Below, piece by piece: positions 11,066 through 64,000 of a stretch of 64,000 nt of DNA. The translations under genes and the position numbers were made by a program. The DNA comes from Bacteroidota bacterium (GTDB lineage: Bacteria; Bacteroidota; Bacteroidia; Chitinophagales; Saprospiraceae), in NCBI GenBank assembly GCA_963169325.1, contig CAUJEY010000248.1, forward strand, positions 4,710 to 68,709. The letters run 5' to 3'. Under the pieces are notes generated by a model. That model was given only the letters and a program-made list of their open reading frames with translations. It was not told the origin of the DNA and did no database searches. Position 1 is the stretch's first letter, and every line of letters starts with the position of its first letter.

Positions 11066-11209
11066 TCTTGAAACCTGCCTGAACATTTGACAAAATACGG
11101 GCTGCCAAGAGGCGGGGAGTGGCCGGTGAATTTGAAACTTAGCGATTGCTCCTGTGTTTTGCTTAATATTAAAGTCCTGTTTTTTCCGTTAAAATTAAAA
11201 TCAACGATT

Positions 11210-12040
11210 ATGAAAAAGAAAATCCTCTTCAGCCTTCTTGTCATAGCCCTCATTGTGGTGGCCTGTAACAAAACGGTTTTTACCGGCCGAAAATCACTGA
11301 ACCTCATTCCGGCCGGCGAATTGAACCAAATGAGTTTTGCCGAGTACAAATCATTTTTATCGCAAAATAAAACACTGACTTCCGGCAAAGACGTCGACCT
11401 GGTAAAACGGGTGGGCAACGACATAAAAGCGGCAGTGGAAGTGTATTACAAATCTAAAAACCTGCAAGGCGATCTTAAAAACTTTGCCTGGGAGTTTAGC
11501 GTGGTAGACGATCCTAACACGGTAAACGCATTCTGTATGCCAGGCGGTAAAGTAGTGGTGTACACGGGTATTTTAAAAGTCACTCAAAACGAAGACGCCC
11601 TGGCTGCGGTGATGGGACACGAGATTGCACACGCCCTGGCCAATCACGGCAACGAGCGCATGAGTCAGGGCTTAGTGGCTCAGTTGGGACTTTCCTCGCT
11701 CCAGGTAGCCTTGTCGCAAAAACCGTCGCAAACCAACGATTTACTGTTGGCCGCCGCCGGCGCCGGCACACAAGTCGGCATTTTGTTGCCGTTCAGCCGC
11801 AAACACGAATCAGAAGCCGACGAAATCGGCCTGTACCTGATGTCTATGGCCGGTTACAACCCGTCGGCCGCCGTTCCATTTTGGGACCGCATGAATAAAA
11901 TGGGCGGAAGTCGTCCGCCGGAATTTCTGAGCACCCACCCCGATCCCAGCAAACGTAGTCAGCGCCTGAAAGAACTGGAGCCCAAAGCCCGCGCTTATGC
12001 GATCCGTTACCCGGTGCCAGGGAGTTCGAAGCGGAAATAA
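11210..12040 (+). CDS. M48-family zinc metallopeptidase lipoprotein
   Basis: ATG at 11210 gives MKKKILFSLLVIALIVVAC lipobox. HEIAHALANH HExxH motif with a downstream ESEAD. Confidence 0.8.
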   Translation: MKKKILFSLLVIALIVVACNKTVFTGRKSLNLIPAGELNQMSFAEYKSFLSQNKTLTSGKDVDLVKRVGNDIKAAVEVYYKSKNLQGDLKNFAWEFSVVDDPNTVNAFCMPGGKVVVYTGILKVTQNEDALAAVMGHEIAHALANHGNERMSQGLVAQLGLSSLQVALSQKPSQTNDLLLAAAGAGTQVGILLPFSRKHESEADEIGLYLMSMAGYNPSAAVPFWDRMNKMGGSRPPEFLSTHPDPSKRSQRLKELEPKARAYAIRYPVPGSSKRK

Positions 12041-48270: not shown

Positions 48271-51200
48271 ATGCCTATGAAATCTTTCTTTACGTTCCTG
48301 ATCCTTGGGATGGGGTGCCTGATTCCTTCAGTTTCCTTCACTCAAAACCATCTTGTGGCTGTCGATGACTCTATCTGCGTTATGGCAGGCGACATTATCG
48401 AGTATAATGTCAAAAGCAATGACACCTTCCCGCAAGGTTTTTTCAACCCCGTATTTTTAGCCACACCATCCAAATGTATCGGGTTAAAGGCCGATGGGCA
48501 ATTGTATTTCCTGCCCGGGGACGAAAATTGTTGCGGAGAGCATATTTTAGAATATAGGTATGAAATATGCCAGCCGCCGGACGATTGTTTCGGCACGATC
48601 AAAGTGGTGGTCAAATGCCCCAAGCCGGATTGCTTTTTTGTCAACCTGGAAGATTTTTTGCACTCCGGCGGCACAGCAGGCGGCAATCCGGATGATCCGG
48701 ATTGTGTGTTTGCCTGCGAAAATGCGCAGGCGGTGTACTACGTCAATTACGATTCCAGCAGCACCTACAGTTGGTCGGTTTTCGGGGGTACGTATGTGCC
48801 CGGTGGCAATCCGGCTGAAATCATCGTCAGCTGGGGCGCAACGGGCAGCGGCACGATTTCCCTGACCATTACCGACAGCAACGGCGAAGCCACTACAGTA
48901 GAAATCTGCGTGGATATACTCGAAGGCCCGGTAACCGCTTTTCAGGCTTCTGCCGACAGTGTTTGCCTCAACTCCCCCATCAGTTTTATCAACAATTCGG
49001 TCGGGGGCAACGGCTTTTTCTGGGATTTCGGCGACGGTAACACGTCCAATATGTTCCAACCCACGCACCAGTATGGCGGGCCGGGCACGTATACCGTCAC
49101 CCTCATTGTGACAAAAGATAACTACGGCCCCAACGGCGAGCCGCTATGCTGTTGCTCCGATACGGCTATGCTCGATGTGTTCATTGATTCGCTTTCGGGA
49201 CCGAATATCTACTGTGTTTCCACACTCTGTGCCGGCGACAGCACCAAATACTGGACCGATGCCACCAATTGCGGCAGCTACCAGTGGGCGGTACTCGACG
49301 CGAACGGGCTGCCGCTTTCTTTTACCGGACAGGGCAACGACACGATTTGCGTCCAGTGGGGAAACGGCCCCACCGGCACCGTGACGCTCGCCGTCACGAA
49401 TTGCGACAGCGCTTATTGCGACCAGCCGGTTTCGGTGCTGATTCCGATCATTTCACCCACGGTAGGGATTAACGGCCTCACGATGGTATGTGAAAACGAC
49501 GTAGCTACTTACACCGTCCCGAAATGGCTCAGCGTCGATTACAACTGGCAAGTGACGGGCGGCGCCATTTTGAGCGGGCAAGGCACCAATACCGTGGTGA
49601 TCCAGTGGGGAACCGCCCCCGGGCCGGGTGTAATCAATCTGAATTATGCCAGCAATTTCCTGGGCGGGTTGCCCGGCCACGAACCGGAAGACTGTGCCGG
49701 CATGGCCGCACTAACGGTCCAGATTAAAACAAAATTCCAGGTCACCGGGCCAATTCCGCCGGTTGTTTGCGTCAATACGACTTCCGGCTTCTCTGCCACA
49801 GCCGTGCCTTATGCCAACTATACCTGGACAATTACGCCGGCGGCTCCGTTTTCGGGGCAGGGCACCAGTGCGATTTCCGTCACCTGGAATACCGGCCCGG
49901 GTACGTTTGTCGTCACGGCAGAACCCAATGACACCTCGGCCTATTGTAACCGGAAGGTAACGAAGGTCATCCGGGTGGTGGAAACACTTAAGCCCGATGG
50001 AATCGACGGCGTGACAGACATCTGCCCCGGAGGCACCTATACCTATTTCGGCCAGACGTCGCAAACCGGCGTGGGCTTCACCTGGGCCGTCACCGGCGGC
50101 ACGCCAGGCACTTATTCCGGGAATCCATTGACCGTAACCTGGAACAACACCGGCCCTTACACACTTGCCGTGCAGCACTTCAGCCTGAGCGCGCCGGGTT
50201 GCACCTCCGATACGATTCAGTTGGCGCTCCTGCCTAAACAGTTGAACGGCCCCTTAACCATCAGCGGCCCTCCCGGCTGTATAAATTCCGTGAAAAGTTA
50301 CTCGGCAGCTCCTGCCCAACACCCCGACGCCACGTATAGTTGGACGATCAGCCCCGTAGCGGCCGGCAGTGTGATTGCCGGCCAGGGCACCCCAAATATC
50401 CAGGTGCAGTGGAACAATACCCCCGGCCCGGCCACGCTTCAACTGACGGTATACCTGTGCAACGACAGCCTGGTCAAAACCTTGCCCCTCACCCTGAATG
50501 CAGCAGCGGTACCCGCGATCACCCAGACGGGTATCCTTTGCCCCGGCGTAACGGCCACGCTGAGTGCCGGAGCCGGATACACCTCTTATGCCTGGTCGCC
50601 CAGCGGAAATACGCAAACGATTCCAATCACTACCGGGGGAACTTATATCGTTACTGCGACGGACGCCAATGGCTGCACCGCCGTAGATACGTATCAGGCT
50701 ATTCCATTGCCCGGACCGGTGGCCTCTATTTCGACACCCAACCCGACGTTATTGTGTATCAACGCGCCGGTAGGCGGGCCGGTGACCATCACCGCGCTGA
50801 CTGCGCCGGGATACACGTATGCCTGGTATTGTAATGGCACACTGCAAGGCTTGCCGCCGGCGCAAAACACTTTGGTACATGCCAATACCCTAGTGGCAGC
50901 AACCTTCAACTATTGGGTAGTGGTCACTGATGCCAACGGCTGCACCAAACAATCCAACACCATTGTAGTCGTGCAGCAAACCTGCACCGCTCCCCCATTC
51001 TGCTTTCCTCAATCGCACAACCTTTCGTTTACGTCCGCCAATCCGGCTCCGAACTGCAATACCGTGGCGTTCACGGTCACCAAGAGCGCTAACGTAACCG
51101 TTACGGGTTGGAATTTCGGCGATCCGGGCAGTAACACCAATAGCGGCATACTGCCCGACGCCATTCATACGTACACCAAAGCCGGTTGTTTTTTGGTGAC

Positions 51201-54200
51201 CGTAACCGCCACCGTACCCAGCCTTGTGCCCCCGAACAGCACTTGCACGATTACCCGCACCGGCACCGTTTGTGTGCCCTTAGTTGCCGATTTCACTTCT
51301 ACGGTTAACTGTCAGAGTGTTTCCTTCAACGATTTGTCCACCTTCCAGCCCGGGCAAGGTCCTGTTTCCTGGATGTGGACATTTGGCGATGCCGGTACCT
51401 CCACCATGCAAAATCCAACGCATGGTTATACCGCTGCGGGCTCCTACACAGTCACGCTGACGGCCACCAATGCCGCCGGTTGTATGGCAACAATTACCAA
51501 AACAGTTGTGGTGGCAGGTTTGCCAGCCCCGACTGTTTCGGCCATTCCGTCGCCGGCTTGTGTGGGCGTACCTGTCAATTTTACGGCCACCGGCGCCAAT
51601 ATAATTTCCTGGTTGTGGAATTTTAACGACGGCGCCACCAACGGCAGCCAAAATCCCGCACATACCTACCTGACCGCAGGCAACTACACCGTTTCGCTTG
51701 CCGTGGTAGACAACCTGGGCTGTACGAACACGATCACCCTGCCCATTACCGTAAACCCTGCCCCAGCGCCCGATACGATTGCCTGGTCGCCGGACCTGAC
51801 ATTTTGCAGCGGCGATTCGGTCACACTCACCGCTCCGGCGGGTACCGGATACACTTATCTGTGGTCGACCGGCGCCGGCACCCAATCCATTGCAGTAGAC
51901 ACCTCGGGCGTTTACAGTGTGGTGGTGACCAATATATTTGGATGTACCATGACGCCTGATTCGGTGGTGACCACGGTGCTACCCGCACCGACCGCTTCTA
52001 TTGCCGGGCCGCTGTTTATTTGCGACGCCGGTTGCGTGACGCTTAGCGCGCCGTCGGGTTACGGGTATACCTATCAGTGGCTCGACAATACCAACGCGCC
52101 CATATCCGGTGCAGTGGCTTCCACCCTCAGCGTTTGCGACACCAACCTGTTACCGGCCTATTCGGTGATTGTGACCGATGCCAACGGCTGTACCGCTGTT
52201 TCGGCGCCGTTTAGCGTTTCCCTGGCGGTGTCGCCGGTCTTTACCATCACGGTGACGCCCGATTCCTGCGAGGGTACGCCGGCCACGCTTTTAGTGATGC
52301 CCGTGCAACCCAATGTGGTGTATTCCTGGAGCAATGGCGGAACGGGGCCTTCTATTACCGTCATTCAGGCCGGCACCTATACCTGCATTGGAACGGATAC
52401 CATAACCGGGTGTAAAAGTTCGGCTACGGCCACCATACATCCCCTGCCGGACCTCTGTATCGTACCCGCAGGTTGCTACGAAGCTTGTAACCCGGATACG
52501 ATTTGCGGCCCCGACGGGCTCGCCGCGTACCAGTGGAACCTGAATGGCGCACCCATAGCAGGCGCCACGAATCAATGCCTGATTGTCACGCAAAGCGGCA
52601 CGTACAGCCTGACCGGTACCACGGCATTCGGTTGCAGCGCCACCTCCGACTCGCTGATGCTGATGTTGATTGATTGTGGTTGCGGCCAATTGAGTGCCAT
52701 AGCAACTCCGATTGAATCGGACAGTTGTTGCTGGTCGCTGAGTTATTCGGGTAATACCGCCAACCTGGTGGGTGTGCTGATCTACACCAATGACGCCGAT
52801 TTTAATTTCAATCTCGGTAGCCTGGATGTGTCCCTCGCCGTGAATTCCATTACCGGAAATTCCATCGGATTGGTGAACAGCCAGGCCGGTGACCCATTGC
52901 CCGCGAATGCGCTGAACAACTTCCTGAATTTCTGTTTTACCAACATACAAAATACGCCACAACAAGTCGTGTTTGATTGGTATGATTTTGAATTCAACGT
53001 GGTGTGTTCCGATACCCTGCTATTCGATTGCCCGGTTGAACCGGATTGTCTTTACCTGGAATCTGATTCTATTCACTGCCAGGGCAATGAAGTGGTGTAC
53101 ACGATGACCGTGTGTAATCCCGCAGATGCTGATTTTTCGGTAGGCTATATCGTGCTGCAACCATCGGCCCCTCCGGGTATTGTGGTCACACCGAACACCA
53201 TAGACGAAACGGCCAATCCGATCCTGCCCGGCCAATGCCGTACCTACACGTTCACGTTGTCCGGGCCGGGTATCGAAAACCAGGAATTCTGTTTCAGCCT
53301 GACGGCGCATGATGAAATACCGGGCGACGAAATTGACACAACAACCTGTTGTATGCTGGATACGATGTATTGTATTCCAATTCCGGATTGTTACCCTTGC
53401 GATAATATCGGGGTGGATACGGTCGAAACGCTTTCGGCGACCGAAGGCAACTGTTGTTACCAAATTTCCCTGTTTAACAACTACGCCGCCGGGTATTTCG
53501 ACGGGATCGGCTTGTGCATGCTTTCCACGGGAGCCACCATGACGATCAACAACCCCTTCGGCTCCGGCTGGCAAACGGCCGGCTATACGCCAACAGTGAT
53601 AGATTTGAATGTAGTGCCGCCGCTGGGAAGCAGTCTTCCATTGGGCGTGGTGCAATTGCCGGCCATCTGTGTCCGGTCGAACCTGGCGCCGCCCCTGCTT
53701 GTGGAAATCAAATGGATGCTGGGGGATAGTATTGTTTGTCGCGACACAATTGAGCTGGGCTGCGAGCCCCCCTGCGGATATATTCTGGGCGAATCTATCG
53801 TTTGCGACCCTGCAACCGGGGCCTGGGTGTACAGCGGTTCGATTAAAAACACTTCGCCTTACACTATGGGTGAAGCGCACGTTGTCTTCACCTCGCCGGC
53901 CGGCATGAACGCCTACAATACCAACATATCGCTGGGCCTCGGCCTGGCGCCGGGCGGCACACAAGCCTTTAGCCTGACGCTGGGTCCGCCCGCCAACCCG
54001 GGAGACAGCGTTTGTTTCACCGTTGCCCTGCATGCGCTGAACGACGATGCACAGCACACGCAATGCTGTACGTTCCACGACTGCATCGTGCTGCCGGATT
54101 GTACCGAACCCTTGAGTTGCCAATGCGACGCCACATTTCAGCAATCTGTTGCACAAGGGATTATCTGCGCGGCATCTGCGACAAACAAATTTATCTACAC

Positions 54201-54672
54201 CTTTTCGCCGGTCAGCCGGCTGAGCGATTGCGATCAGGTGGTATGGGAATGGACCGATTTATCCGTGCCCGTGCAAACAACCGGGAATACTTCCGTCACC
54301 CACCAATTTGCGAGGACAGGCATTTACAGCGTTTGTATGAACGTTTATCGCACAACTGAAACCGGCAATACCTGCCTGGCGCAAACCTGCAAGGATATTA
54401 ACCTCGTTTCTGTTGCCGAATCGACGCAATTGCGATTGTATCCCAACCCCGTTCATGGGCGGGCGTTTGCCGCGATGTCGCCCTACTGGACGGAAAGCGC
54501 CCATATCCGGGTATTCGATCTGCTGGGGCGTGAGCGGGCCGATTTTGATTTTCCGGATGCCGCGGGGCAGGAAGTACTGCCCGTGCCGTTGGACGGGCTC
54601 GCTACAGGGATGTACCTGATGATTGTGGAATCGGGCGGGAAAAAATGGGTGGTGAAGGTGGTGCTGGAGTGA
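48271..54672 (+). CDS. Giant PKD-repeat adhesin-like T9SS-sorted protein
   Basis: Signal peptide MPMKSFFTFLILGMGCLIPSVSF. PKD units (FWDFGDGNTSN...HQYGGPGTYTVTLIV; WTFGDAGTS...; WNFNDGATNGS...). C-terminal LRLYPNPVHGRAF sorting domain. Confidence 0.85.
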   Translation: MPMKSFFTFLILGMGCLIPSVSFTQNHLVAVDDSICVMAGDIIEYNVKSNDTFPQGFFNPVFLATPSKCIGLKADGQLYFLPGDENCCGEHILEYRYEICQPPDDCFGTIKVVVKCPKPDCFFVNLEDFLHSGGTAGGNPDDPDCVFACENAQAVYYVNYDSSSTYSWSVFGGTYVPGGNPAEIIVSWGATGSGTISLTITDSNGEATTVEICVDILEGPVTAFQASADSVCLNSPISFINNSVGGNGFFWDFGDGNTSNMFQPTHQYGGPGTYTVTLIVTKDNYGPNGEPLCCCSDTAMLDVFIDSLSGPNIYCVSTLCAGDSTKYWTDATNCGSYQWAVLDANGLPLSFTGQGNDTICVQWGNGPTGTVTLAVTNCDSAYCDQPVSVLIPIISPTVGINGLTMVCENDVATYTVPKWLSVDYNWQVTGGAILSGQGTNTVVIQWGTAPGPGVINLNYASNFLGGLPGHEPEDCAGMAALTVQIKTKFQVTGPIPPVVCVNTTSGFSATAVPYANYTWTITPAAPFSGQGTSAISVTWNTGPGTFVVTAEPNDTSAYCNRKVTKVIRVVETLKPDGIDGVTDICPGGTYTYFGQTSQTGVGFTWAVTGGTPGTYSGNPLTVTWNNTGPYTLAVQHFSLSAPGCTSDTIQLALLPKQLNGPLTISGPPGCINSVKSYSAAPAQHPDATYSWTISPVAAGSVIAGQGTPNIQVQWNNTPGPATLQLTVYLCNDSLVKTLPLTLNAAAVPAITQTGILCPGVTATLSAGAGYTSYAWSPSGNTQTIPITTGGTYIVTATDANGCTAVDTYQAIPLPGPVASISTPNPTLLCINAPVGGPVTITALTAPGYTYAWYCNGTLQGLPPAQNTLVHANTLVAATFNYWVVVTDANGCTKQSNTIVVVQQTCTAPPFCFPQSHNLSFTSANPAPNCNTVAFTVTKSANVTVTGWNFGDPGSNTNSGILPDAIHTYTKAGCFLVTVTATVPSLVPPNSTCTITRTGTVCVPLVADFTSTVNCQSVSFNDLSTFQPGQGPVSWMWTFGDAGTSTMQNPTHGYTAAGSYTVTLTATNAAGCMATITKTVVVAGLPAPTVSAIPSPACVGVPVNFTATGANIISWLWNFNDGATNGSQNPAHTYLTAGNYTVSLAVVDNLGCTNTITLPITVNPAPAPDTIAWSPDLTFCSGDSVTLTAPAGTGYTYLWSTGAGTQSIAVDTSGVYSVVVTNIFGCTMTPDSVVTTVLPAPTASIAGPLFICDAGCVTLSAPSGYGYTYQWLDNTNAPISGAVASTLSVCDTNLLPAYSVIVTDANGCTAVSAPFSVSLAVSPVFTITVTPDSCEGTPATLLVMPVQPNVVYSWSNGGTGPSITVIQAGTYTCIGTDTITGCKSSATATIHPLPDLCIVPAGCYEACNPDTICGPDGLAAYQWNLNGAPIAGATNQCLIVTQSGTYSLTGTTAFGCSATSDSLMLMLIDCGCGQLSAIATPIESDSCCWSLSYSGNTANLVGVLIYTNDADFNFNLGSLDVSLAVNSITGNSIGLVNSQAGDPLPANALNNFLNFCFTNIQNTPQQVVFDWYDFEFNVVCSDTLLFDCPVEPDCLYLESDSIHCQGNEVVYTMTVCNPADADFSVGYIVLQPSAPPGIVVTPNTIDETANPILPGQCRTYTFTLSGPGIENQEFCFSLTAHDEIPGDEIDTTTCCMLDTMYCIPIPDCYPCDNIGVDTVETLSATEGNCCYQISLFNNYAAGYFDGIGLCMLSTGATMTINNPFGSGWQTAGYTPTVIDLNVVPPLGSSLPLGVVQLPAICVRSNLAPPLLVEIKWMLGDSIVCRDTIELGCEPPCGYILGESIVCDPATGAWVYSGSIKNTSPYTMGEAHVVFTSPAGMNAYNTNISLGLGLAPGGTQAFSLTLGPPANPGDSVCFTVALHALNDDAQHTQCCTFHDCIVLPDCTEPLSCQCDATFQQSVAQGIICAASATNKFIYTFSPVSRLSDCDQVVWEWTDLSVPVQTTGNTSVTHQFARTGIYSVCMNVYRTTETGNTCLAQTCKDINLVSVAESTQLRLYPNPVHGRAFAAMSPYWTESAHIRVFDLLGRERADFDFPDAAGQEVLPVPLDGLATGMYLMIVESGGKKWVVKVVLE

Positions 54673-54680
54673 TAAGGGGT

Positions 54681-54795
54681 TGAATATCGAATGTCGAACA
54701 GCGAATGTCGAATATCGAAGTATCGTAACGTGTTCCGTGGCATGGAACACGTTACGATACTTCGATATTCGCTGTTCGCTGTTCGACATTCGACA
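54681..54795. repeat. Hairpin built from TNTCGAA 7-mers (TCGAATATCGAATGTCGAA family)
   Basis: The central roughly 35 bp on each arm are perfectly complementary (CGAATATCGAAGTATCGTAACGTGTTCC). It starts 9 nt after the stop at 54672. Confidence 0.8.
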
Positions 54796-54895
54796 CTTTA
54801 CTGTCGGGCGTCTTAGACGCGATGACGAATATTTTGACGGACTTTGCCCGCATTTGAATACGAAAGCGGACAAAGTCCGCCAAATATTTTACAAC
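54796..54895. repeat. Repeat module D, copy 1 (CTGTCGRGCGTCTTA...AATATTTTGACGGACTTTG)
   Basis: It shares about 55 bp of gapped similarity with 59557-59610. Internal hairpin GACGGACTTTGCCCGC...GCGGACAAAGTCCGCC. Confidence 0.6.
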
Positions 54896-54982
54896 TCCGT
54901 TACATTGTTTTACATCTAAAAATCTGTTTGGTTTTGGCCGGGCCGTTCCTTTGCAGCATTGTTTCACCAACCAAACATTGTC

Positions 54983-56002
54983 ATGTACATCCACATACTC
55001 GCCTTTTTGCTCTTTTTTCAATCCTTCGTAGCCTGCCGGCAGGTTCAGGAAAATGCGTCTCCATTGGAAGCCAACCTCGCTTTTCAATCCAACGGCGACT
55101 CCCGGCAGGAGCCCGAAAAAGCGCCGCTCCCGGCAACCGGCATCATTTTTCGATCCATCGACGACGGGCAGACCTGGCAGGATATCAGTGCAGGATTGCC
55201 TGGCGATAAGTCAGCCGACTGTTTTTTCGCGCAGAACGGCGAACTCTTTTTGGGTTCTGCCGATGGGTTGTACCGCAGCCCAATCACTTCAGCAGCACCT
55301 GTTTGGGAAAAAGATTTTCTGCTGAACGAACAAACAACCGGCATTTTCCCCGGTCAGGCCGGGCCGTATTCCCTTAGTCCTGAGAACGGTTTTTTCCAAA
55401 ACATTTTGAAGGGCATCTGGGCGTCCGTGTTTTCTAACCTGAAAGAACAGATGTTGCGCAGCATTTTTGAAACTGTGGACGGAACCGTTTTCGTCGGCTG
55501 CGACAATGGCATTTTCAAATCCGGCGATCATGGAAAAACATGGAAACATGTTTATAAGGAAGGCTGGATGATTCAAATGGTGGAGTCTGGCGGCGTACTT
55601 ATTTGCACCAGCGAGCAAGGGATATTGCGCTCAACTGACAGCGGTGAACACTGGGATTTGGTGGTGACCGAAGGCGGCGTTGGCATTGATGTGGAAGTTA
55701 TCGAAGGTGGGTTCGCTGCGATCACCTTCAATACCGAATCGGAGACCAGGAGAGTGCGCATTTCCACAGACGGCGGTAATACCTGGCAGGCCATCGATGC
55801 GGGTCTTCCGCCGCATGCGTCTATCTCCTCCATCAAACAGGTGGGTAACTACTTCTTTTGCGGCCATCCTGACGGCATTTATCGCTCCGATGACTGGGGC
55901 AAAACATGGAAACTTTTGCTTCCTTCTATCAAGGAAAAGGTATTCAATTTGTCCGTTTCGGGCAACGTGATTTATGCTATACCAAGAAGTGGGGGGTGTT
56001 GA
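54983..56002 (+). CDS. BNR/Asp-box repeat (sialidase/Ycf48-like propeller) lipoprotein
   Basis: Lipobox FFQSFVAC. Asp-boxes DDGQTWQ, GDHGKTWK, TDSGEHW, TDGGNTWQ, DDWGKTWK. Confidence 0.8.
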   Translation: MYIHILAFLLFFQSFVACRQVQENASPLEANLAFQSNGDSRQEPEKAPLPATGIIFRSIDDGQTWQDISAGLPGDKSADCFFAQNGELFLGSADGLYRSPITSAAPVWEKDFLLNEQTTGIFPGQAGPYSLSPENGFFQNILKGIWASVFSNLKEQMLRSIFETVDGTVFVGCDNGIFKSGDHGKTWKHVYKEGWMIQMVESGGVLICTSEQGILRSTDSGEHWDLVVTEGGVGIDVEVIEGGFAAITFNTESETRRVRISTDGGNTWQAIDAGLPPHASISSIKQVGNYFFCGHPDGIYRSDDWGKTWKLLLPSIKEKVFNLSVSGNVIYAIPRSGGC

Positions 56003-56018
56003 GTATCCTGTGCCGGGG

Positions 56019-56266
56019 TTGTGTCAAAAGTCTTTTGATAAAAAACCGCGACAAATTTTTCACTACGAGACACGGAGTCCTTGAATTTCGAATATCGAAC
56101 ACGGAATGTCGAATGTCGAAGCAGCCCTAGCACACACTGTGATTCGGTATACTCTACGTTCTTTCGAAATTCGACATTCCGTGTTCGATATTCGATATTC
56201 AAGGACTCCGTGGTGAATTAAAATAATCTACGGCGGGAAAAATTTAACATATCCTTTTGACACAAC
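56019..56266. mobile_element. MITE-like mosaic palindromic element, copy 2 (long form with nested TCGAA hairpin)
   Basis: Perfect 13-bp terminal inverted repeats GTTGTGTCAAAAG / CTTTTGACACAAC. Nested hairpin 56074-56209. Conserved GTGGTGAATTAAAATAATCTACGGCGGGAAAAA module. Confidence 0.7.
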
Positions 56267-56463
56267 TGCGTAGCGGGTTTTCGCCCCGCAAATCATCATT
56301 GAAAAAGTAACTCCTTTTAGGCAAACCCCAGCAAACAGTAAGTTCCCGCCTCGAACTACACCTAAAATATTCTTTGGCACTTTGGCACGTTTCTTGAAAT
56401 TCCATTGGCTACTATGTAAAAAATTGCCACAGGACCTATTGAGAAAACGAAACACCACTGCCA

Positions 56464-58082
56464 ATGAGTACCCGGCCCACTGTCGCCGGCACAAACGCAA
56501 ATACGGGTACTGATTACGCAACTCAAATACGAGGAAGCCTTCGATCTACTCGAACGCAGCCTGGGCGGTATGGAGCAACTAGATCGATTTGCCCCACTTG
56601 AAAGCCCGCTACCGGCAGTGGAAGCAGCACCAACAAGAAAACACTGCCGACTCCCGCGACCTCGATCTGGAAATCAACAAAATCCGTTACACCCTGCTGA
56701 CGTACGCCGGCCAAATGAAAGACGTATGAGCGCAACAGCCGAATACCGCTACCCGGGCATACAGCCCTTTTCCGGCAGGCAAAAAAACCTGTTTTTCGGA
56801 CGCGACAACGACCGGGAACGGCTGCTTTCGCTGCTTTTATTAGAAAAACTCACGGTTTTGTTCGGAAAATCGGGCTATGGCAAATCGTCGCTGCTCAACG
56901 CCGGTATCGCGCCCGGACTCGAAAAAGAAAGCCGGCGCGGCAAACGCGAATACGTCCCGGTGTTCGTCCGTTTCCATTCCCGCGTCGGCAACGAACAGTA
57001 CGATTGGTTCGATTGGTTCGCGTTTCAACTGGCGCAACAGGCGCCCATAAACCCCGATCTATACGAACCCCGTAGCTCCCTGCCTCGCACGCTCTGGGGC
57101 GAACTCAAGCGTCGCCAAACAGGGCCGCGAAACGGGCATCGAGGCTTTCCAGTTGCAAATACTGGCACAAAACGTGGAACACCGCGTGATCCGCGGCGAA
57201 GTCGCTGACCGCAATGGCGACGGCCAACCCGACGTGGCCGTCGCCGACCTGCCTGGTATGGAGCGCCTGTACGAGGTCTTTTACGAAGATGCCCTGGATA
57301 AACTGACCGCGCCCGACCGTAAAAAAACGCGGCGCCTTCTCGAACAAGGGCTGATTTTCGAGCAGGACAACCAACGCATCAACCTGCACGAAAAACTCAT
57401 CAACCGGGATTACGGCGTCGGCGAAACCCTCACTCAACAATTAATCGACCTGCGTTTGCTGCGCGCCGAACCCAGCACCTCCGGCGGACATAACATTGAA
57501 CTCTCGCACGACTCCTTCGTGTTACCGATCCTGAATGTAGCCCGGCGGCGCAGGCAGGAATTGTGGCGAAAACGGGCCCTGGTATTGGGCGTTTTTGCAG
57601 GACTGTTGATCCTGGTGCTGGGCGCCGGGAGTGTATTCAACCTGACCGTAAAAAAAACAGACGCCACGGTGATACGCCAGAACGTCGTGCTGACGCATCA
57701 ATTGGATTCGATCAAAGTAATCCGAAACTTAGAGGAAGAAGCCAAAGCGGTGGCCCTGAAGTATCTGGAATGTGTGAACAATCACGATATCCCGGGCGTG
57801 TCGGCGCTGATGACCGATACGTTGGAGCAATATTACACGGCTAAAAACCTGCCCCGGGCAAAACGGGAAAAACTCGAACGCGATTATTACCGGAAGCACC
57901 CGGAACAAGGCCAGGCACACGTCAATACCGTTCTGGTGGAAAAGAAAGGCCTGGTTTATGAAGTCACCCTCAATACCGATTATGTGCACCCGTCAAAGGG
58001 ATTGGTGCAGGTGGTTTATAGGATCAAATTGAATGAGGGGTTGAAGATGTATTATTTGCGGTCGTTTATTGCGGAGGAGTGA
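56464..58082 (+). pseudogene. STAND-like P-loop NTPase remnant (frameshifted, internally deleted) with C-terminal TM and NTF2-like domain
   Basis: Walker A FGKSGYGKSSLLNAG. The reading requires three frames (56464..., 56468-57208, 56583-56729, 57051-58082). No Walker B lies between the P-loop and IEAFQLQILAQNVEH. Confidence 0.5.
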
Positions 58083-58305
58083 GTGGTGTATATTTTTCTG
58101 AAAGGCGATTTATTTATTTCGCTTTAACATGAACATATAAAATATTAATTTAATCCCGATCTTTATTCCCCGAACAAAGTGGCGGATGTCTGACAAATAT
58201 GAAATATTAATTCAGAAATACCCAAAATAGGTTGCTTGATTGCGTGGGAGGGTTTATTCTTGTGGACGTTTTGTTATATTACTCCCCTAATCTATAAAAT
58301 CCCTT

Positions 58306-58506
58306 TCATTTTACCGGTTGCGCTAAAACCAAGTGGTGATTGTCTGTTGAATTCAGGCGGACTGGTATTTCTATTGAATTATTTATGAATACCGCTTGTC
58401 GTGTAGGGCGATGAGGGGTTGATTTTATTGCTTTGGAATTATCGATTCCGTGTTGCTTTTTAATATTTTTTCTATGATTGTCAACTATCTTTTCACTTAT
58501 AAACAT
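58306..58506 (-). pseudogene. Possible LuxR/GerE-type HTH fragment
   Basis: FISEKIVDNHRKNIKKQHGIDN resembles the recognition-helix consensus (S..TV..H..NI..KLGV.N). There is a stop immediately upstream and no N-terminal domain. Confidence 0.25.
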
Positions 58507-58521
58507 TTAAAAAATTAAATC

Positions 58522-58728
58522 ATGCCAATTATTCCTTATGATCAATCCGAAATTAATACCGGAGTCAGTGCAGATTCCAATGCCTTGGTTGAGATTCCTT
58601 TTGTTGAATTTACACAAAACTGGTATTCCATGTTGATTCGCACCAAAGCAGTGAAAAAACGGAAAACGGATATCAAAATACTTATTCCGATAAAATATCC
58701 AGTTGGGGAGCAGCAAAACCAAGCCTGA
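58522..58728 (+). CDS. Hypothetical small protein, islet ORF 1
   Basis: ATG start. A/T-ending codon usage is uniform with the next two ORFs. Its stop shares one base with the next start. Confidence 0.45.
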   Translation: MPIIPYDQSEINTGVSADSNALVEIPFVEFTQNWYSMLIRTKAVKKRKTDIKILIPIKYPVGEQQNQA

Positions 58729-58964
58729 TGCCCGGTCCGGGCAATAAATTACCGATCAATATGCTCGGCAGAAGCACATTCGGCCGCGCAATGGTTGGCA
58801 GTATTTCAGCAAGTGGCGGCCAAAGTAAAACGGTAACCAATTTGAATGTAAAAGTTGTAAATGAGAAATCAACTTCTGCAACCAACCTTACCATTGATAT
58901 AATCGGTTCAGTAAAAATTGAATTCAAGACCGATTATTTCCCCTCCTTTATTCCGGAAAAATAA
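58728..58964 (+). CDS. Hypothetical small beta-rich protein, islet ORF 2
   Basis: TGATG junction with ORF 1. TVTNLNVKVVNE...LTIDIIGSVKIEFKTDY alternating pattern. Confidence 0.45.
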   Translation: MPGPGNKLPINMLGRSTFGRAMVGSISASGGQSKTVTNLNVKVVNEKSTSATNLTIDIIGSVKIEFKTDYFPSFIPEK

Positions 58965-58975
58965 TAAGCACTAAA

Positions 58976-59473
58976 ATGAACCTGACAGAAGTTGTCCTGC
59001 TCTTACAAAACGAACTGCAAAAATCTTATGAGTATTTGCGAATTAACGCCGCTCAACCGAATGGTAATGATTCGAACTTAATACATTTGAATTTCAATGA
59101 AGTCGAAATCGAATTACCCATAATGATTAAGCTAAAGGAAAGAGGGGTCGCCATCGATTCACTTAAAGATCTACCAGATTATTTGAAATTCATGCGGATT
59201 CCATTTAGCTTGGAATATCAATTAAATCAATTTTCTGCATCAAAAAAAGAACAGGCAGAAAAAAACGTTTCGGCGCAAGAAGGCAATTTAAAAATAGATA
59301 TAGAAAGCATGAAAGTTGCTCCGGGAGAAGAACGAAAAATTCCGGATAAGCGATTTATTTTTGGCAATGAAACCAACATTAGGCTTCTTACGGGTAAAGA
59401 TATTGCTGAAAGAATAGAAAACCAAAGCAATCTTATTTCCAAAATAAAGATCAAATTCAAACCGGTAATTTAG
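58976..59473 (+). CDS. Hypothetical protein, islet ORF 3 (possible trypco2-like fold)
   Basis: It starts 11 nt after ORF 2. N-terminal helix LLLQNELQKSYEYL, then LNFNEVEIELPIMI, with C-terminal SKIKIKFKPVI. The resemblance is from memory only. Confidence 0.5.
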   Translation: MNLTEVVLLLQNELQKSYEYLRINAAQPNGNDSNLIHLNFNEVEIELPIMIKLKERGVAIDSLKDLPDYLKFMRIPFSLEYQLNQFSASKKEQAEKNVSAQEGNLKIDIESMKVAPGEERKIPDKRFIFGNETNIRLLTGKDIAERIENQSNLISKIKIKFKPVI

Positions 59474-59544
59474 AGGCTATTGTATTTTTTCGTTTTTTAT
59501 ATATTATTTTCTTATTCTTCTATTCACCCTGCTGGCCGGAGCCT

Positions 59545-59680
59545 TCCTACTGTGTTCCTGTCGAGCGTCTTACATGCGCAGACAAATATTTTAACGGCCT
59601 TTGTCCGCTTTAGTAATCAAATGCCGACAAGGTTCGTCAATGTATTCGTCTGCGCCTGTAAGACGCTGGACAGCAATGAG
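59545..59680. repeat. Repeat module D, copy 2 (27-bp-stem hairpin 59557-59674)
   Basis: CCTGTCGAGCGTCTTACATGCGCAGAC ... GTCTGCGCCTGTAAGACGCTGGACAGC. The interior is similar to 54820-54860. Confidence 0.65.
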
Positions 59681-60990
59681 ACTTCATTTCTTTCAACCAC
59701 TCAACCACATCCAATGCAAAAACCAATCTTCATCGCCCTTTTTTCGGCTCGAGCGCCCGTACTCAACCCTGCTGGCCCGATGGCTTCCATCTCTTTTCTC
59801 AGTTCGACGTCGGCAATTTACCACCTTTCGCTACCGCGACCGTCAACCTGACCGTCCGGACAAAATGTAATACCTTCCAAACCGGACATGCTTTCTGTTG
59901 GGAAGCCTTCGCCAGGCTGCAAAACGCCTGCACAGCCCCGCCGCCGCAGGCTGAAATACGCTTGTCTGCCGTCTGCACGGGCGATTCGCTGCGATTTACC
60001 CTGAAAAACATCGGAAATGCCCCCACCCAAAACCCGCACGAATACAAAATTATCCGGAACGTGAACCGGCATCTCACTGCGAACTTCAGCCTTGCCCCGC
60101 AGCAATCGTTCTCCGTGGCCGTGCCGGCTGACGGCGCCACCTGGCGCATGGAAGCGACCAAACTCGACGACGGAACCCTTACGGCAACCGCCCTGGAAAA
60201 TTGCGGCGGCCTGACCCCGGGCCTGATCACCGCTTTTTGGCTCGACAAAGGTCCGCTCGAATCCGACTTCGATTGCCGGCAGGTGATCGGCTCTTACGAT
60301 CCCAACCTGAAAAGCGCCGTACCCGCCGGCGCGGGCCTCAACTACACGATAACTGCTAACCGGCCGGTCCAGTACACCATCGACTTCCAGAACACCGGCA
60401 CCGATACGGCCTACCGGGTATTGCTGCGCGATGTGCTGCCGGCCGCGTTTGATTTGAACACGTTCCGCGCGGGTTTCTCTTCGCACCCCTGCACCTGGGA
60501 AATCCGGGGCAATACCCTGGACGTGCTTTTCTCCCCCATCGCTTTGCCCGACAGCAACGTCAACGAACCGGCATCGCGGGGCTTTTTCAGTTTTGAACTG
60601 GATCAAAAGCCCAACTTGCCCGATGGCACATTTTTTCAAAACACCGCCGCTATCATTTTCGATTTCAACCCACCGATTATAACCAACACGGTGTATCACA
60701 CCATTGGAAAACTAACCGTGGATATTGACGAACCGCAACGCTACGCCGACCTGTGGCAAGTGGCGGGCAATCCGACCCGCGATGCCGCTACTTTCAGCGC
60801 TTTGACCTTTGTTGCAGGGGAAAAACGATTCGAGTTGTACGACGCCTCCGGCCGGCCTGTGCGTACAGCCTTGTTTTCCGGGCAGTCGTTCGTGTTTCAG
60901 CGGGATTTGTTGCCGGGTGGCGTGTTCTTTTTCCGGATTGGCGATGAACGGGGAAGGTGGTTTACAGGGAAAATCGTGGTGACGGAGTGA
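59680..60990 (+). pseudogene. 5'-truncated T9SS-sorted protein (paralogous module to the C-terminus of 1999-5361)
   Basis: The frame is open from 59680 with no start codon or signal peptide before the TTG at 59962. YDPNLK...IDFQNTGTDTAYRVLLRD block. C-terminal sorting domain. Confidence 0.5.
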
Positions 60991-61028
60991 AAATAAGTAG
61001 CTGATAAAGACATTAGCCTCGGCAGGTA

Positions 61029-61661
61029 TTATATCCGCATTTTCCTCAAATCCAACTCTAATCCCGGACACACCCCTTCACCCGATAACACATGGTCAAA
61101 GCCGATAAAAGCCGCCTCCGTCCCATCTTCCCGGTAAATCCAGGCCTTTTCCTGCAACGGGTCGATCAGCCAGGCCAGGCGTACGCCGTTGGCGATCCAG
61201 GTGTCGGTCATTTTCTTTTTTAACTTACCGATCCGGTCGGAATTAGAGCGCACCTCGATAACAAAATCGGGCGCCAGGCGGGGAAAACGTTTCCAGTCCT
61301 CGGGTTGCAGGTTGTCTAATCGCTCATCGGAAACCCAGGAGCCGTCGGAAGCGCGGGTGGAGGTATCGGGAAGTTTGAAGCCGGTGGAAGGGCTGAGAAT
61401 GCGGCCTTTTTGGTAATTAAGCCACCAGGTAGAGAGATATGCATAGGCGATCCCTTCACGGGTTCCGCCTTCGAGGTCGACGGGAGGCATAATAATGAGT
61501 TTTCCGTTTTTATCTTGTTCGATCCGGAGATGATCGTTTTCAGCGCAAAATTCCATTAGCTCTTCCTCCGTTATAGGCCGGTCTGCTTTAAACTCTATGT
61601 TCACACCCCGTAGCGTTTTTGGTAACATCAGGGGTTGTTTCAATGCTCTGGCAGCAGTCAT
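61029..61661 (-). CDS. Uma2-family (DUF820) restriction-endonuclease-fold protein
   Basis: ...APDFVIEVRSNSD...KMTDTWIANGVRLAWLIDP... is the typical Uma2 PD-(D/E)xK core. Confidence 0.75.
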   Translation of the reverse strand: MTAARALKQPLMLPKTLRGVNIEFKADRPITEEELMEFCAENDHLRIEQDKNGKLIIMPPVDLEGGTREGIAYAYLSTWWLNYQKGRILSPSTGFKLPDTSTRASDGSWVSDERLDNLQPEDWKRFPRLAPDFVIEVRSNSDRIGKLKKKMTDTWIANGVRLAWLIDPLQEKAWIYREDGTEAAFIGFDHVLSGEGVCPGLELDLRKMRI

Positions 61662-61757
61662 AAATATAAAATTTGTTCAAAGATAAACAGAAAATTGGAA
61701 ACGGTCTTTTGACCATGCAACCATTTAACCCTACTTGCGACTTACCATTCGGCAACC

Positions 61758-62522
61758 ATGCACCTCTACCACGCCATCACCCTGCTCCTCTGTCTATCCT
61801 GTACCCTTTCTCCAAAAGCGCCCTCCCCTACCGCTGCCGTAGCAGTGCCGGCCGATTCCATACCCATCCCCTTTTTCCCAAAACCCGACCGAACCTACCC
61901 GGCCGGCCGCGCACACGTAGCGCAACAACGGGAAGCATTAAAGTCAGCGCACGCCGCCGGACGCATTTCCACGGATTCTGTTGGCAAGGCCTTCACAAAT
62001 TGTCTTTTACAGGAAATCATCCCCCACTGGTACGGCACACCCTGGTCGTTCGGCGGCTACACGGAAAAGCCGGGACAAGACTATATCGCCTGTGGGTATT
62101 TCGTATCCACCACTCTGCTGCACGGCGGACTAAACCTCAACCGCTACCGCCTGGCTCAACAGGGCCCGGCTGATGAAGCGCTGATGCTGAGCCTCGGCGA
62201 CACCGTGCGGGTAACCCGGCGCGGTGACGCGGAAAAAGCGCTGGCGCTGTGGCGCGAACGGCTACGCGACGGTTTGTATTTTATTGGACTCGGCGAAAAT
62301 CACGTGGGATATTTACTGAAACAGGGCGCGGGATTGTTTCTGATCCACTCGAATTATGCGGGCCCTGTGGAGGTGCAATTGCAGCGCGCCGAGGAAAGTG
62401 TTTTAATCGGGTTCCGCGAGTTTTACCTGGCGGATATCACGTTTAACCGGCAATTGATGGAGTATTGGTTGAATGACAGGAAGGTGCCATTGCAAAAAAC
62501 GGGCGTTTTAATGGAATGGTAG
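61758..62522 (+). CDS. Hypothetical lipoprotein
   Basis: MHLYHAITLLLCLSC lipobox. Conserved-looking Cys (YIACGYF) and His (ENHVGYL, LIHSNY) hint at a thiol hydrolase, but this is unverified. Confidence 0.45.
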   Translation: MHLYHAITLLLCLSCTLSPKAPSPTAAVAVPADSIPIPFFPKPDRTYPAGRAHVAQQREALKSAHAAGRISTDSVGKAFTNCLLQEIIPHWYGTPWSFGGYTEKPGQDYIACGYFVSTTLLHGGLNLNRYRLAQQGPADEALMLSLGDTVRVTRRGDAEKALALWRERLRDGLYFIGLGENHVGYLLKQGAGLFLIHSNYAGPVEVQLQRAEESVLIGFREFYLADITFNRQLMEYWLNDRKVPLQKTGVLMEW

Positions 62523-62527
62523 TTACA

Positions 62528-62736
62528 CTGTCCTGCTGTCGAGCGTCTTCAGACGCTCGACAGCAAGAGACACGGAGAATATCGAATGTCGAACAAGGAA
62601 TATCGAATGTCGAAGTTGCGTTGAGTACACCGCATCGCAGAACGCACTACGGGTATTTCGACATTCGATATTCCTTGTTCGACATTCGATATTCTCCGTG
62701 CCGTGGTGAATTAAAATAATCTACGGCGGGAAAAAG
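62528..62736. mobile_element. MITE-like mosaic element, copy 3 (module-D hairpin, nested TCGAA hairpin and conserved right module)
   Basis: Perfect 12-bp stem CTGTCGAGCGTC-TTCA-GACGCTCGACAG (62536-62563). Hairpin 62574-62697. CCGTGGTGAATTAAAATAATCTACGGCGGGAAAAA module. Confidence 0.65.
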
Positions 62737-62743
62737 CCCAACC

Positions 62744-63214
62744 CTAATTCCTCCCCTGTCGCCGCTCCATCCGCTCCAGCCGTTTGGCCCGGGCTTCCTG
62801 CAGTTTGATGACTAACCGTTCGCGGAACTCCCGCTCGGCTGCCGGTATTTTGGCGATTTTGCGCAGCGGCAATACTTTGCGGAGTTTCTGGTACAAGTCG
62901 CGCTCCAGGTCCAGGTCGCGCTGGCGCATTTCAAAGTGGCGTTTGAGTTGATCCTCCACCTCGCTGTCGCTCATGGCGTCCAGTTGTTTTTTGGGTTTGC
63001 GATCGTCCTGCATTTTGTCGCGGCTGTCCTGGTATTCGTTGTAGACCGGCCAGAATCCCTGGGCTTCTTCAGCGGTCAGTTTCAGCACTTCGGTAAAGAT
63101 GGCGACCCGGTAGGCTTTCAGGCGCTCGTCGCGTTTGTCGGGATCAAACTCCTGGGCCTGCAGGGAGGCGCCGAACAGGAGTATCAGCGTGGTGATAAAA
63201 AATGTGTACTTCAT
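62744..63214 (-). CDS. Periplasmic helical protein (Spy/CpxP-like), third gene of an ECF sigma operon
   Basis: Signal peptide. Charged helical repeats. It lies downstream of the sigma/anti-sigma pair on the same strand. Confidence 0.5.
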   Translation of the reverse strand: MKYTFFITTLILLFGASLQAQEFDPDKRDERLKAYRVAIFTEVLKLTAEEAQGFWPVYNEYQDSRDKMQDDRKPKKQLDAMSDSEVEDQLKRHFEMRQRDLDLERDLYQKLRKVLPLRKIAKIPAAEREFRERLVIKLQEARAKRLERMERRQGRN

Positions 63215-63247
63215 GGCGTATGTGTTTATCTGGTATAAAACAGATGG

Positions 63248-63808
63248 TTAAAGCAATTCTTCCAGTTCTTCGTCGGTCATATCGCGGAGCAGTTGTTCCA
63301 GGTCTTCGGGAGAAATCTGAACTTCGTTTTTAGGAGCGGCTGCACCTTCCGGGGTCGTCCCGTGACCCGGGTCGAGCGAGATTTGCGGAAATTCGTCTTC
63401 CGGTAAAATCATGGCAATTTGGTTAAGGTCGAATTCCTGGAGGTTGTCCAGCAGGTAAGTGGCCGCATCCTCTGCCGAAATCGTTGCATCGGCGATGACC
63501 GGGGCCACCGGCGGAGCGATGAAATAGCGCCATCCGACCACCACCATTACCAGCAGCCCGGCCACGGCCAAAGCCAGGCGCGGCTGCCAGAGGTTTTGCA
63601 AAAACTGCCACCAGGAGCGCTGCTGCTTTGTTTTGGAGAAGGCCGCCGGTTTGCGCCGCGCGCCGATGGCGTCTAATTGCCGGAAAACACTGTCTTCCAA
63701 TGCGTCGAAATATTCCCCGGGCACACGCAGGCCGTCCTCTTTTTGCCGCAGCTCGTTCAGAAACGGGGCGTGTTCGTTGAGTTCGTCGTGCAATTTTTCT
63801 TTTTTCAT
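63248..63808 (-). CDS. Putative anti-sigma factor (single TM)
   Basis: It starts 6 nt after the sigma-factor stop. TM LALAVAGLLVMVVVGW. Acidic C-terminus. Confidence 0.55.
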   Translation of the reverse strand: MKKEKLHDELNEHAPFLNELRQKEDGLRVPGEYFDALEDSVFRQLDAIGARRKPAAFSKTKQQRSWWQFLQNLWQPRLALAVAGLLVMVVVGWRYFIAPPVAPVIADATISAEDAATYLLDNLQEFDLNQIAMILPEDEFPQISLDPGHGTTPEGAAAPKNEVQISPEDLEQLLRDMTDEELEELL

Positions 63809-63814
63809 GGTCTT

Positions 63815-64000
63815 TTATATATGATCCGCTTCGCGGAAAAAGGTTTCAATTTTTTTTACCGCATGGTGAAAAGAGGCTTTCAGAGCGCCTATGGAAGTAT
63901 CCAGCATGTTGGACATTTCTTCGTAAGGCATTTCGTCGTAATAGCGCAGATTAAACACGATGCGTTGTTTTTCCGGCAGCTGTGCCATGGCGGTCTGGAG
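63815..64000 (-). CDS. ECF sigma-70 family factor (3' part only; runs off the window)
   Basis: Region 4: LPEKQRIVFNLRYYDEMPYEEMSNMLDTSIGALKASFHHAVKKI. Stop TAA at 63815-63817. Confidence 0.8.
   Translation of the reverse strand, partial: LQTAMAQLPEKQRIVFNLRYYDEMPYEEMSNMLDTSIGALKASFHHAVKKIETFFREADHI

Follow-up and report, generated by a model that had tools for sequence, protein, structure and literature searches.

This analysis concerns an AT-rich islet of 1438 nucleotides (nt), lying at positions 58083 to 59520 of a 64,000-nt stretch of Saprospiraceae DNA (Bacteroidota bacterium, GenBank assembly GCA_963169325.1, contig CAUJEY010000248.1, positions 4,710 to 68,709 of the forward strand), which is hereafter called the window. 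An earlier note, made from the sequence alone, had described the islet as a cassette of three translationally coupled open reading frames (ORFs) beside a decayed STAND NTPase, and had proposed it as a candidate conflict or defence module. Here we describe it instead as a copy of a two-gene module, termed A-B, in which the larger gene A has very probably been broken and the smaller gene B is intact. The comparison rests largely on a homologous 18-kb contig, termed L001. The features of the locus are listed below, those given as context last.

58190-59518, forward strand: low-GC block shared with L001 (8694-10543) by blastn, made up of leader, broken gene A and gene B
58255-58521, forward strand: putative non-coding leader/promoter region of gene A, conserved in L001
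58522-58964, forward strand: gene A pseudogene, 443 nt remaining of a 963-nt gene for 320 amino acids (aa), by comparison with L001 9027-9989
58522-58728, forward strand: ORF1, 68 aa; A's genuine N-terminus up to residue 31, then an out-of-frame reading (32-68) to a chance stop (three-frame translation against L001)
58607-58625, forward strand: deletion junction in a short direct repeat, A[AC][ACG]AAACTGGTA in L001, the copies of which match at 10 of 12 bases
58608-58964, forward strand: in-frame C-terminal remnant of A; frame 3 is open from 58608 and reads ...YTKLVFHVDSHQ...FPSFIPEK, colinear with L001
58728-58964, forward strand: ORF2, 78 aa, the last 78 codons of A, with an ATG start where L001 has TTG (Leu)
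58976-59473, forward strand: gene B (ORF3), 165 aa, intact, 11 nt 3' of A, ending in ...KIKFKPVI
58306-58506, reverse strand: spurious antisense ORF of 66 aa (the "LuxR fragment"), with a GerE match of E = 0.11 over 18 residues
56570-58082, forward strand: EAD11-nSTAND1 NTPase remnant, context only; covers positions 2-68 of the 379 of the nSTAND1 model, frameshifted and truncated
59528-59676: palindromic intergenic repeat of about 120 nt just 3' of gene B, context only; a second copy lies at 54798-54884 and the same element stands 3' of B in L001

Gene A and gene B at the locus

The three ORFs of the earlier note do lie at 58522-58728, 58728-58964 and 58976-59473, with a TGATG overlap between the first two and an 11-nt gap before the third, however the first two are not genes in their own right. 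A search of 5.8 billion proteins returned just two clusters close to ORF3. One, 99% identical, represents this locus as found in other metagenomes (L003-L005), and the other, 85% identical, is located on L001. On that contig a single intact ORF of 320 aa is placed 11 nt upstream of the ORF3 homologue; its first 31 residues correspond to residues 1-31 of ORF1 and its last 78 residues to ORF2. Global alignment of the window with L001 9027-9989 opens a single gap of 520 nt in the window (963 versus 443 nt), and the remnant is colinear with the intact gene over the first 28-31 and the last 115 codons. The window sequence at 58607-58625 aligns to both 9113-9131 and 9632-9650 of L001, and a gap placed in this way between short direct repeats is the pattern characteristic of a microhomology-mediated deletion. 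As 520 cannot be divided by three, the frame is shifted and residues 32-68 of ORF1 are out-of-frame read-through. The ATG of ORF2 arises by a change of CTC TTG to CTG ATG, exactly at the stop of the shifted frame, and ORF1 and ORF2 look translationally coupled only as a result of the frameshifting deletion.

The same deletion junction is present in L003, L004, L005, L033 and L034, which come from other samples and bring the number of assemblies to six with the window; since the allele recurs in different samples, it is not an assembly error. It is also unlikely that L001 has gained an insertion instead of the window having suffered a deletion, because all 49 homologue clusters of the L001 protein (270-350 aa) carry the middle region. 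We are thus confident that A was destroyed in this lineage by a frameshifting deletion of 520 nt between short direct repeats, and that B was left intact. What looked like a coupled three-gene operon is a pseudogene followed by one gene that has survived, with no functional tie to the adjacent STAND NTPase.

The protein of gene B begins with a helix and a beta-hairpin, which a variable charged linker separates from a second beta-hairpin at the C-terminus, and the window copy keeps every position that is invariant in its family. The ratio of non-synonymous to synonymous substitution rates (dN/dS) against L001 is 0.13 for ORF3, and 0.03 and 0.07 for the N-terminal and C-terminal pieces of A when these are read in the original frame. 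Relatives of the encoded proteins and purifying selection on them, both of which the earlier note had taken to be needed for its proposal, are accordingly found. Inside the islet, the window differs from L003-L005 at just three positions, all of them non-synonymous in the A and B frames and too few to weigh. With A being dead, the module in the window is most likely an inactive, decaying remnant.

Upstream of gene A, the region 58255-58521 shares 80% (blastn) to 86% (MAFFT) of its positions with L001, in part as invariant blocks of 30-50 nt, and matches no Rfam family. The synonymous divergence (dS) of the adjacent genes, about 0.5-0.6, would predict an identity of around 60%, and judged from this the leader appears conserved above expectation and may be a regulatory element. 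On its opposite strand the earlier note had seen a LuxR-type helix-turn-helix fragment. This is an artefact, as the GerE similarity is confined to 18 residues and L001 does not share the frame, its homologous stretch having no antisense ORF that reaches 50 aa; the DNA beneath it is better read as the leader/promoter of A.

The AT-rich character of the islet, formerly judged by eye, was confirmed by calculation. Its guanine-plus-cytosine (GC) content of 0.351 is the minimum among all segments of the same length in the 64 kb (mean 0.530, standard deviation 0.038, z = -4.7), and 400-nt segments fall to 0.35-0.40 over about 58000-59600 against 0.52-0.60 on both flanks. The preference for A/T-ending codons is equally real, with a third-position GC (GC3) of 0.34 in ORF3 versus 0.58-0.70 in the surrounding PKD, BNR, NTPase-remnant and DUF7619 genes. 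By blastn, the DNA that the window has in common with L001 (two segments, 77-80% and 86% identical) consists only of the block 58190-59518 and a palindromic host repeat 3' of B, and the left flank of L001 codes for two giant proteins that have no counterpart anywhere in the window. The different left flank and the deviant GC mark the block as a discrete transferred unit. As the earlier note had stated, no integrase, tRNA or target duplication accompanies it: tRNA genes are absent within 50000-64000, integrase and transposase families are absent from the precomputed Pfam matches of the same locus, and no direct repeats bounding the islet were found.

The foreign composition supports the earlier suggestion of horizontal acquisition, however it does so for this lineage and L001 alone, which are the only cases where the GC of A-B lies 0.10-0.18 below that of the flanks. 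In 13 other genomes A-B matches its surroundings, for example 0.33 and 0.33 in Aequorivita, 0.45 and 0.45 in a Syntrophomonadaceae genome, and 0.63-0.71 and 0.69 in Polyangium. For the islet itself there is little doubt in our judgement that it was acquired laterally and is a low-GC copy of a two-gene module that is conserved and has as yet no name.

A conserved gene pair in distant phyla

When 1.84 billion cluster representatives were scanned in full with HMMER, 15 relatives of B came up at E <= 1e-3, with lengths of 125-147 aa and the common pattern M.L.ELI..LQ.EVQKSYD...LHI..E..EIELP...LP.PF...G...IGRIKIVLKP.I. The A family is recognised by the blocks F.DFT..LV...; ...EQLEAYAELV...; and ...LKLGMQKVVVT.GEI.TKLTFHVD, together with a Gly/Ser-rich stretch and a further block, ...VVNEKSTSATN...DI.G.V.I.FRT..FPS. 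A gene for A (about 270-330 aa) and then one for B (about 125-170 aa) on the same strand are found in about 35 non-redundant loci of Bacteroidota, Bacillota, Myxococcota and Acidobacteriota, and B directly follows A in 12 of the 18 non-redundant loci of the first clustering round and in most of 23 metagenome loci. The window itself holds such a pair, as the profile hidden Markov models (HMMs) of the two families match ORF2, the A remnant, at E = 1e-27 and B at E = 8.5e-40, the two genes being 11 nt apart, and about 25 further non-redundant loci are arranged likewise. Carriers include Aequorivita, Flavobacterium, Chitinophagaceae and others in Bacteroidota, Metabacillus, Alkalihalobacterium and others in Bacillota, and also Syntrophomonadaceae and many metagenome contigs; an intact and culturable example is provided by Aeqsu_2558/2557 of Aequorivita sublithincola. 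The family is rare: 185,579 species genomes, scanned for its pattern, yielded 15 loci.

Clustering of all neighbouring ORFs revealed no other gene that is conserved across the A-B loci, hence the conserved synteny envisaged for the trio does exist, although for the duo A-B and not for three genes. Scans against Pfam, NCBIfam, PADLOC and PHROGs with the three ORFs, the intact A, many relatives and the family consensuses gave no significant match, which agrees with the former statement that the islet matches no named system. The phage collection contained no match to A. The novelty of the locus lies in the unannotated A-B family and not in the degraded copy of the window.

The pair also exists in modified forms. 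In the variant carried by Myxococcota and Acidobacteriota, A is followed by a short gene of 91-106 aa that resembles B, and then by another A paralogue and a BNR-type protein; in Polyangium this short gene aligns with the B family, yet it stays below the threshold of the B HMM. We observed this arrangement, with a YCF48-like BNR protein, at five loci of Myxococcota and related bacteria (L010, L017, L019, L027 and L028), where the BNR-like ORFs joined the A-family cluster, maybe through an A-like N-terminal part or through single-linkage chaining. A BNR/Sortilin-like gene in the window (54959-56002) was considered as a counterpart of this BNR protein and rejected, since the two have only generic Asp-box repeat similarity. 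A more distant version with multiple paralogues occupies 395144-411677 of a Burkholderia pyrrocinia plasmid (NZ_CP091309.1), where four A paralogues (361-484 aa) are grouped with an S8 peptidase, a 273-aa Trypco2-like protein and several uncharacterised proteins; a giant amidase and a cyclase-domain protein flank the cluster. An 87-aa protein of this cluster appears B-like by eye, and its hhalign comparison with the B profile is not significant (E = 0.31). In a metagenome-assembled genome (MAG) of Syntrophomonadaceae (L008), two near-identical A-B copies lie 9 kb apart (944-2168 and 10001-11225), each directly after an enoyl-CoA hydratase gene in a beta-oxidation gene cluster.

Structures of both proteins were predicted with AlphaFold2 (AF2), at modest to low confidence. 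The model of B (predicted local distance difference test, pLDDT, 68) has a helix at residues 3-26, a long hairpin at 43-59, a low-confidence charged linker at 89-123 and strands at 127-137 and 152-161, and the strands alternate hydrophobic and charged residues. The model of A (pLDDT 57) begins with long helices and a small mixed middle domain, continues with a helix at 162-190 and a hairpin at 193-215, and ends with a disordered Gly/Ser loop followed by a hairpin at 292-313. The C-terminal hairpins of B and A align in hhalign (E = 2.6e-4, probability 42%), and the B HMM matches the same segment of A, in register, in 30 out of 30 A sequences; from these alignments B looks like a shortened paralogue of the C-terminal half of A. 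The shared hairpin and the back-to-back genes make a co-assembly of the two proteins plausible. Sequence-profile searches of PDB with the A and B alignments found no match. Stems of pore-forming toxins (lysenin, CDTb, iota Ib and anthrax PA) appeared in the weak Foldseek list for A with probabilities of at most 0.12, and were not used as evidence.

Possible function and rival readings

The earlier note had associated the layout of ORF3 with trypco2-type domains. The domain was first described in PMC7159879, and Pepco (Trypco1/2) was recently reported to exist as a beta-barrel of 9-10 subunits, assembled in advance and bearing amphipathic helices at its base, which turns into a lethal pore when its C-terminal tail is cut off by a partner protease (Evans et al. 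2025, bioRxiv 10.1101/2025.11.14.688446). The cleavable tail of Pepco is disordered and lies behind a conserved Ile, and its barrel resists SDS. A real similarity of pattern exists in the relatives of B, however the family assignment could not be reproduced at the gathering score of 24.2 bits that defines membership in Trypco2 (PF19631). ORF3 of the window has no Trypco2 match at E <= 1, weak matches are seen in three of 16 B members (the best, P0014, with 13.9 bits and E = 0.067, below threshold), and the B consensus reaches 10.2 bits (E = 0.98). The best Trypco2 score that we saw belongs to the 273-aa protein of the Burkholderia plasmid (E = 0.0098), again below threshold, and no chain to Trypco2 could be made through it. 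Profiles were further compared with SsPepco, a sequence given in the supplement of the Pepco paper and annotated as trypco2, and with a four-sequence Trypco2 alignment built from Streptomyces plasmids; hhalign gave the B profile a probability of 5% (pairwise E of about 0.008), neither the A nor the B profile exceeded 5%, and the profile search for B relatives returned no Trypco2-annotated protein. All of the weak alignments keep a single register, in which B residues 2-55 face Trypco2 residues 2-45, that is, the N-terminal helix and the first strand.

Peptidases form the other link to such systems. A peptidase gene adjoins A-B or lies inside the cluster in six of about 17 non-redundant loci whose immediate neighbours could be annotated. 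They comprise S8 subtilases in a Bacillota MAG (L018), in a Chitinophagaceae MAG (L020/L026) and in the Burkholderia plasmid cluster (L032), an M1 peptidase in L044/L054, an M14 peptidase in Metabacillus (L013) and an Rce1-like peptidase in a Nannocystaceae locus (L017). In L026, a TPR-CHAT protein is also encoded two genes downstream, after a DUF7619 gene. With a chance of 3-10% per locus, a rough binomial estimate for this post hoc count gives P of about 7e-6 to 5e-3; as the count was made afterwards and the families are heterogeneous, the adjacency is a lead only. The protease connection suggested by the earlier note receives some support, of an unexpected kind, with S8, M1, M14 and Rce1-like enzymes in place of trypsin, and no peptidase stands beside the window copy.

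As an overall explanation we favour, with a probability of roughly 0.55, an acquired A-B module that has lost A in this lineage and that has a Pepco-like mechanism when intact. The functional part, taken by itself, is put forward as a tentative analogy: intact A-B could be a protease-licensed, Pepco-like, membrane-active beta-hairpin effector pair. A and B would be non-enzymatic alpha+beta proteins with long N-terminal helices followed by long beta-hairpins of alternating hydrophobic and charged residues, they would co-assemble into a hetero-oligomeric beta-sheet or beta-barrel, and a partner protease would license the membrane-active pair as it does with Pepco. We favour this mechanism because the layout and the frequent peptidase neighbour resemble Pepco. 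B is likewise small, lacks an enzymatic motif and places an N-terminal helix before alternating hydrophobic/charged strands, and A-B has a peptidase gene often adjacent and a scattered distribution as for horizontally transferred genes. The differences are also clear, as B, at 125-170 aa, exceeds Pepco in length, contains a variable linker in its interior and ends one to three residues after its last strand (...KPVI), and is always paired with the larger A (270-330 aa), whereas Pepco has no such partner; and while Pepco relies on a trypsin or caspase fused to a sensor, the peptidases near A-B are S8, M1, M14 or Rce1-like, and most loci have none.

Several observations weigh against this reading. 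Around 11 of the 17 loci have no adjacent peptidase, and the peptidase families that do occur are unrelated to each other, some being common housekeeping types. Many A-B contexts are plainly metabolic, such as the beta-oxidation genes of Syntrophomonadaceae, and neither a PADLOC match nor a phage copy was found. At the sequence level there is no statistically significant homology to Trypco2/Pepco, all Pfam scores being below 24.2 bits, and B ends right after its last predicted strand, its sequence showing no sign of the disordered C-terminal tail that is cleaved in Pepco. Foldseek searches with the AF2 models, A and B against PDB and B against BFVD, gave nothing below E = 0.07 for these modest to low-confidence models, and the N-terminal helix does not exceed shuffled sequences in its helical hydrophobic moment, although this holds for B and SsPepco alike and so does not discriminate. 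It would go further still, and we think it rather unlikely, to see in A-B new two-component, protease-licensed, pore- or sheet-forming beta-hairpin effectors of cell death, very distantly related or convergent to Pepco/Trypco2 and spread horizontally through at least 4-5 phyla, with the Burkholderia plasmid cluster as the full-blown and the duo as the minimal form. If the Pepco-like reading is true, a two-component variant would be added to the recently recognised protease-activated pore effectors, and if it is wrong, A-B would still be a well-delimited pair of domains of unknown function that is worth naming.

The same evidence can be arranged differently. A-B might be an ordinary physiological or structural pair, acting for instance in envelope, granule or stress functions without any conflict or pore role, in which case the peptidases would be coincidental and the window copy simply dead; this is the main rival reading, nearly as likely as the Pepco-like mechanism and, like it, less likely than not. 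It would account for the host-like GC and GC3 that give the pair the look of a long-term resident in most genomes, for the two Syntrophomonadaceae copies among enoyl-CoA hydratase, thiolase and acyl-CoA dehydrogenase genes, for the dehydrogenases, ferredoxin reductase, peroxidase and cytochrome-like genes that neighbour A-B elsewhere, and for the lack of a PADLOC match, a PHROG match or a phage copy, and one Burkholderia paralogue has a non-significant match to Phasin_2 (E = 0.84). It fits poorly with the very patchy distribution over distant phyla (the 15 loci among 185,579 species genomes), the clearly foreign composition of the window copy, a peptidase adjacency above rough chance expectation, and the Burkholderia plasmid cluster that joins four A paralogues with an S8 peptidase and a cyclase-domain protein. 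Alternatively, the broken locus may have kept a reduced function, with B, perhaps together with a re-initiated 78-aa hairpin fragment of A starting at 58728, being expressed and active, for example like the immunity or antitoxin survivor of an addiction module. B has kept all invariant residues, the conserved leader is intact, the CTC TTG to CTG ATG change puts a new start codon right where the shifted frame stops, and the deletion allele has spread or persisted in six assemblies of different samples. Like type II toxin-antitoxin modules, A-B is a compact two-gene operon, patchy and horizontally mobile, with one partner lost here and the other kept, but the divergence since the deletion is too small to measure selection and its three differences are all non-synonymous, no known toxin or antitoxin domain and no DNA-binding antitoxin-like fold is detected, and the gene sizes (277 and 130 aa) are unlike those of known toxin-antitoxin pairs. 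We regard such a surviving function as improbable.

What remains of the earlier proposal, a three-gene coupled conflict cassette with a trypco2-type third protein working with the adjacent STAND NTPase, is in our view very improbable and largely refuted by the comparison with L001. An EAD11-nSTAND1 remnant does adjoin the islet on its upstream side, a point in common with the NTP-dependent nSTAND1/EAD conflict systems (Kaur et al. 2020), which pair an intact STAND NTPase with an effector bearing the matching EAD adaptor domain; sub-threshold Trypco2 signals occur in the relatives of B, and the ATG of ORF2 does overlap the stop of ORF1. However, ORF1 and ORF2 are fragments of one gene, Trypco2 scores stay below threshold, and neither A nor B proteins carry EAD11, another EAD or any other Pfam domain. 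The decay of the upstream gene was correctly recognised, as only positions 2-68 of the 379 of nSTAND1 are left, a stretch around the P-loop, in a broken frame, but its role as a partner is not supported: its GC is host-like at 0.53-0.58 versus 0.35 for the islet, its adjacency is unique to this lineage, and no STAND NTPase stands beside A-B in L001, where two giant unrelated proteins take that place, or in any other locus. The unequal GC indicates that the two were not acquired together, and we have little doubt that the module neither arrived with the neighbouring nSTAND1 remnant nor depends on it.

Surroundings of the islet

The NTPase gene itself has a partial EAD11 called at its N-terminus in the sister assemblies. 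Between 56500 and 58000, the window differs from L003-L005 at 98 positions in 1.5 kb, with 1-nt and 3-nt indels in addition, and over the next 3.1 kb at only about five, being otherwise around 99.9% identical. Such a hot spot of divergence suggests that the NTPase gene has not simply decayed but has undergone recombination or had its allele replaced.

Downstream of B, a DUF7619 gene occurs in the window (59962-60990) as well as in the Chitinophagaceae MAG L026 (9363-10814). The two share 25% identity, confined to the domain, and in the window the gene falls beyond the low-GC block; the shared position is probably a coincidence.

Rfam searches of the islet gave only spurious matches to miRNA models, all on the palindromic repeat of about 120 nt (54798-54884 and 59555-59676). 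Promoter-like sites are rarer in the islet than in shuffled sequences (2 versus a mean of 5.6), and terminator-like sites number 4 versus 1.6 ± 1.5, which is uninformative. A second family of palindromic repeats, a GAATATCGAATGTCGAA-type hairpin, is found in the window at 54673-54800, 56071-56212 and 62571-62700.

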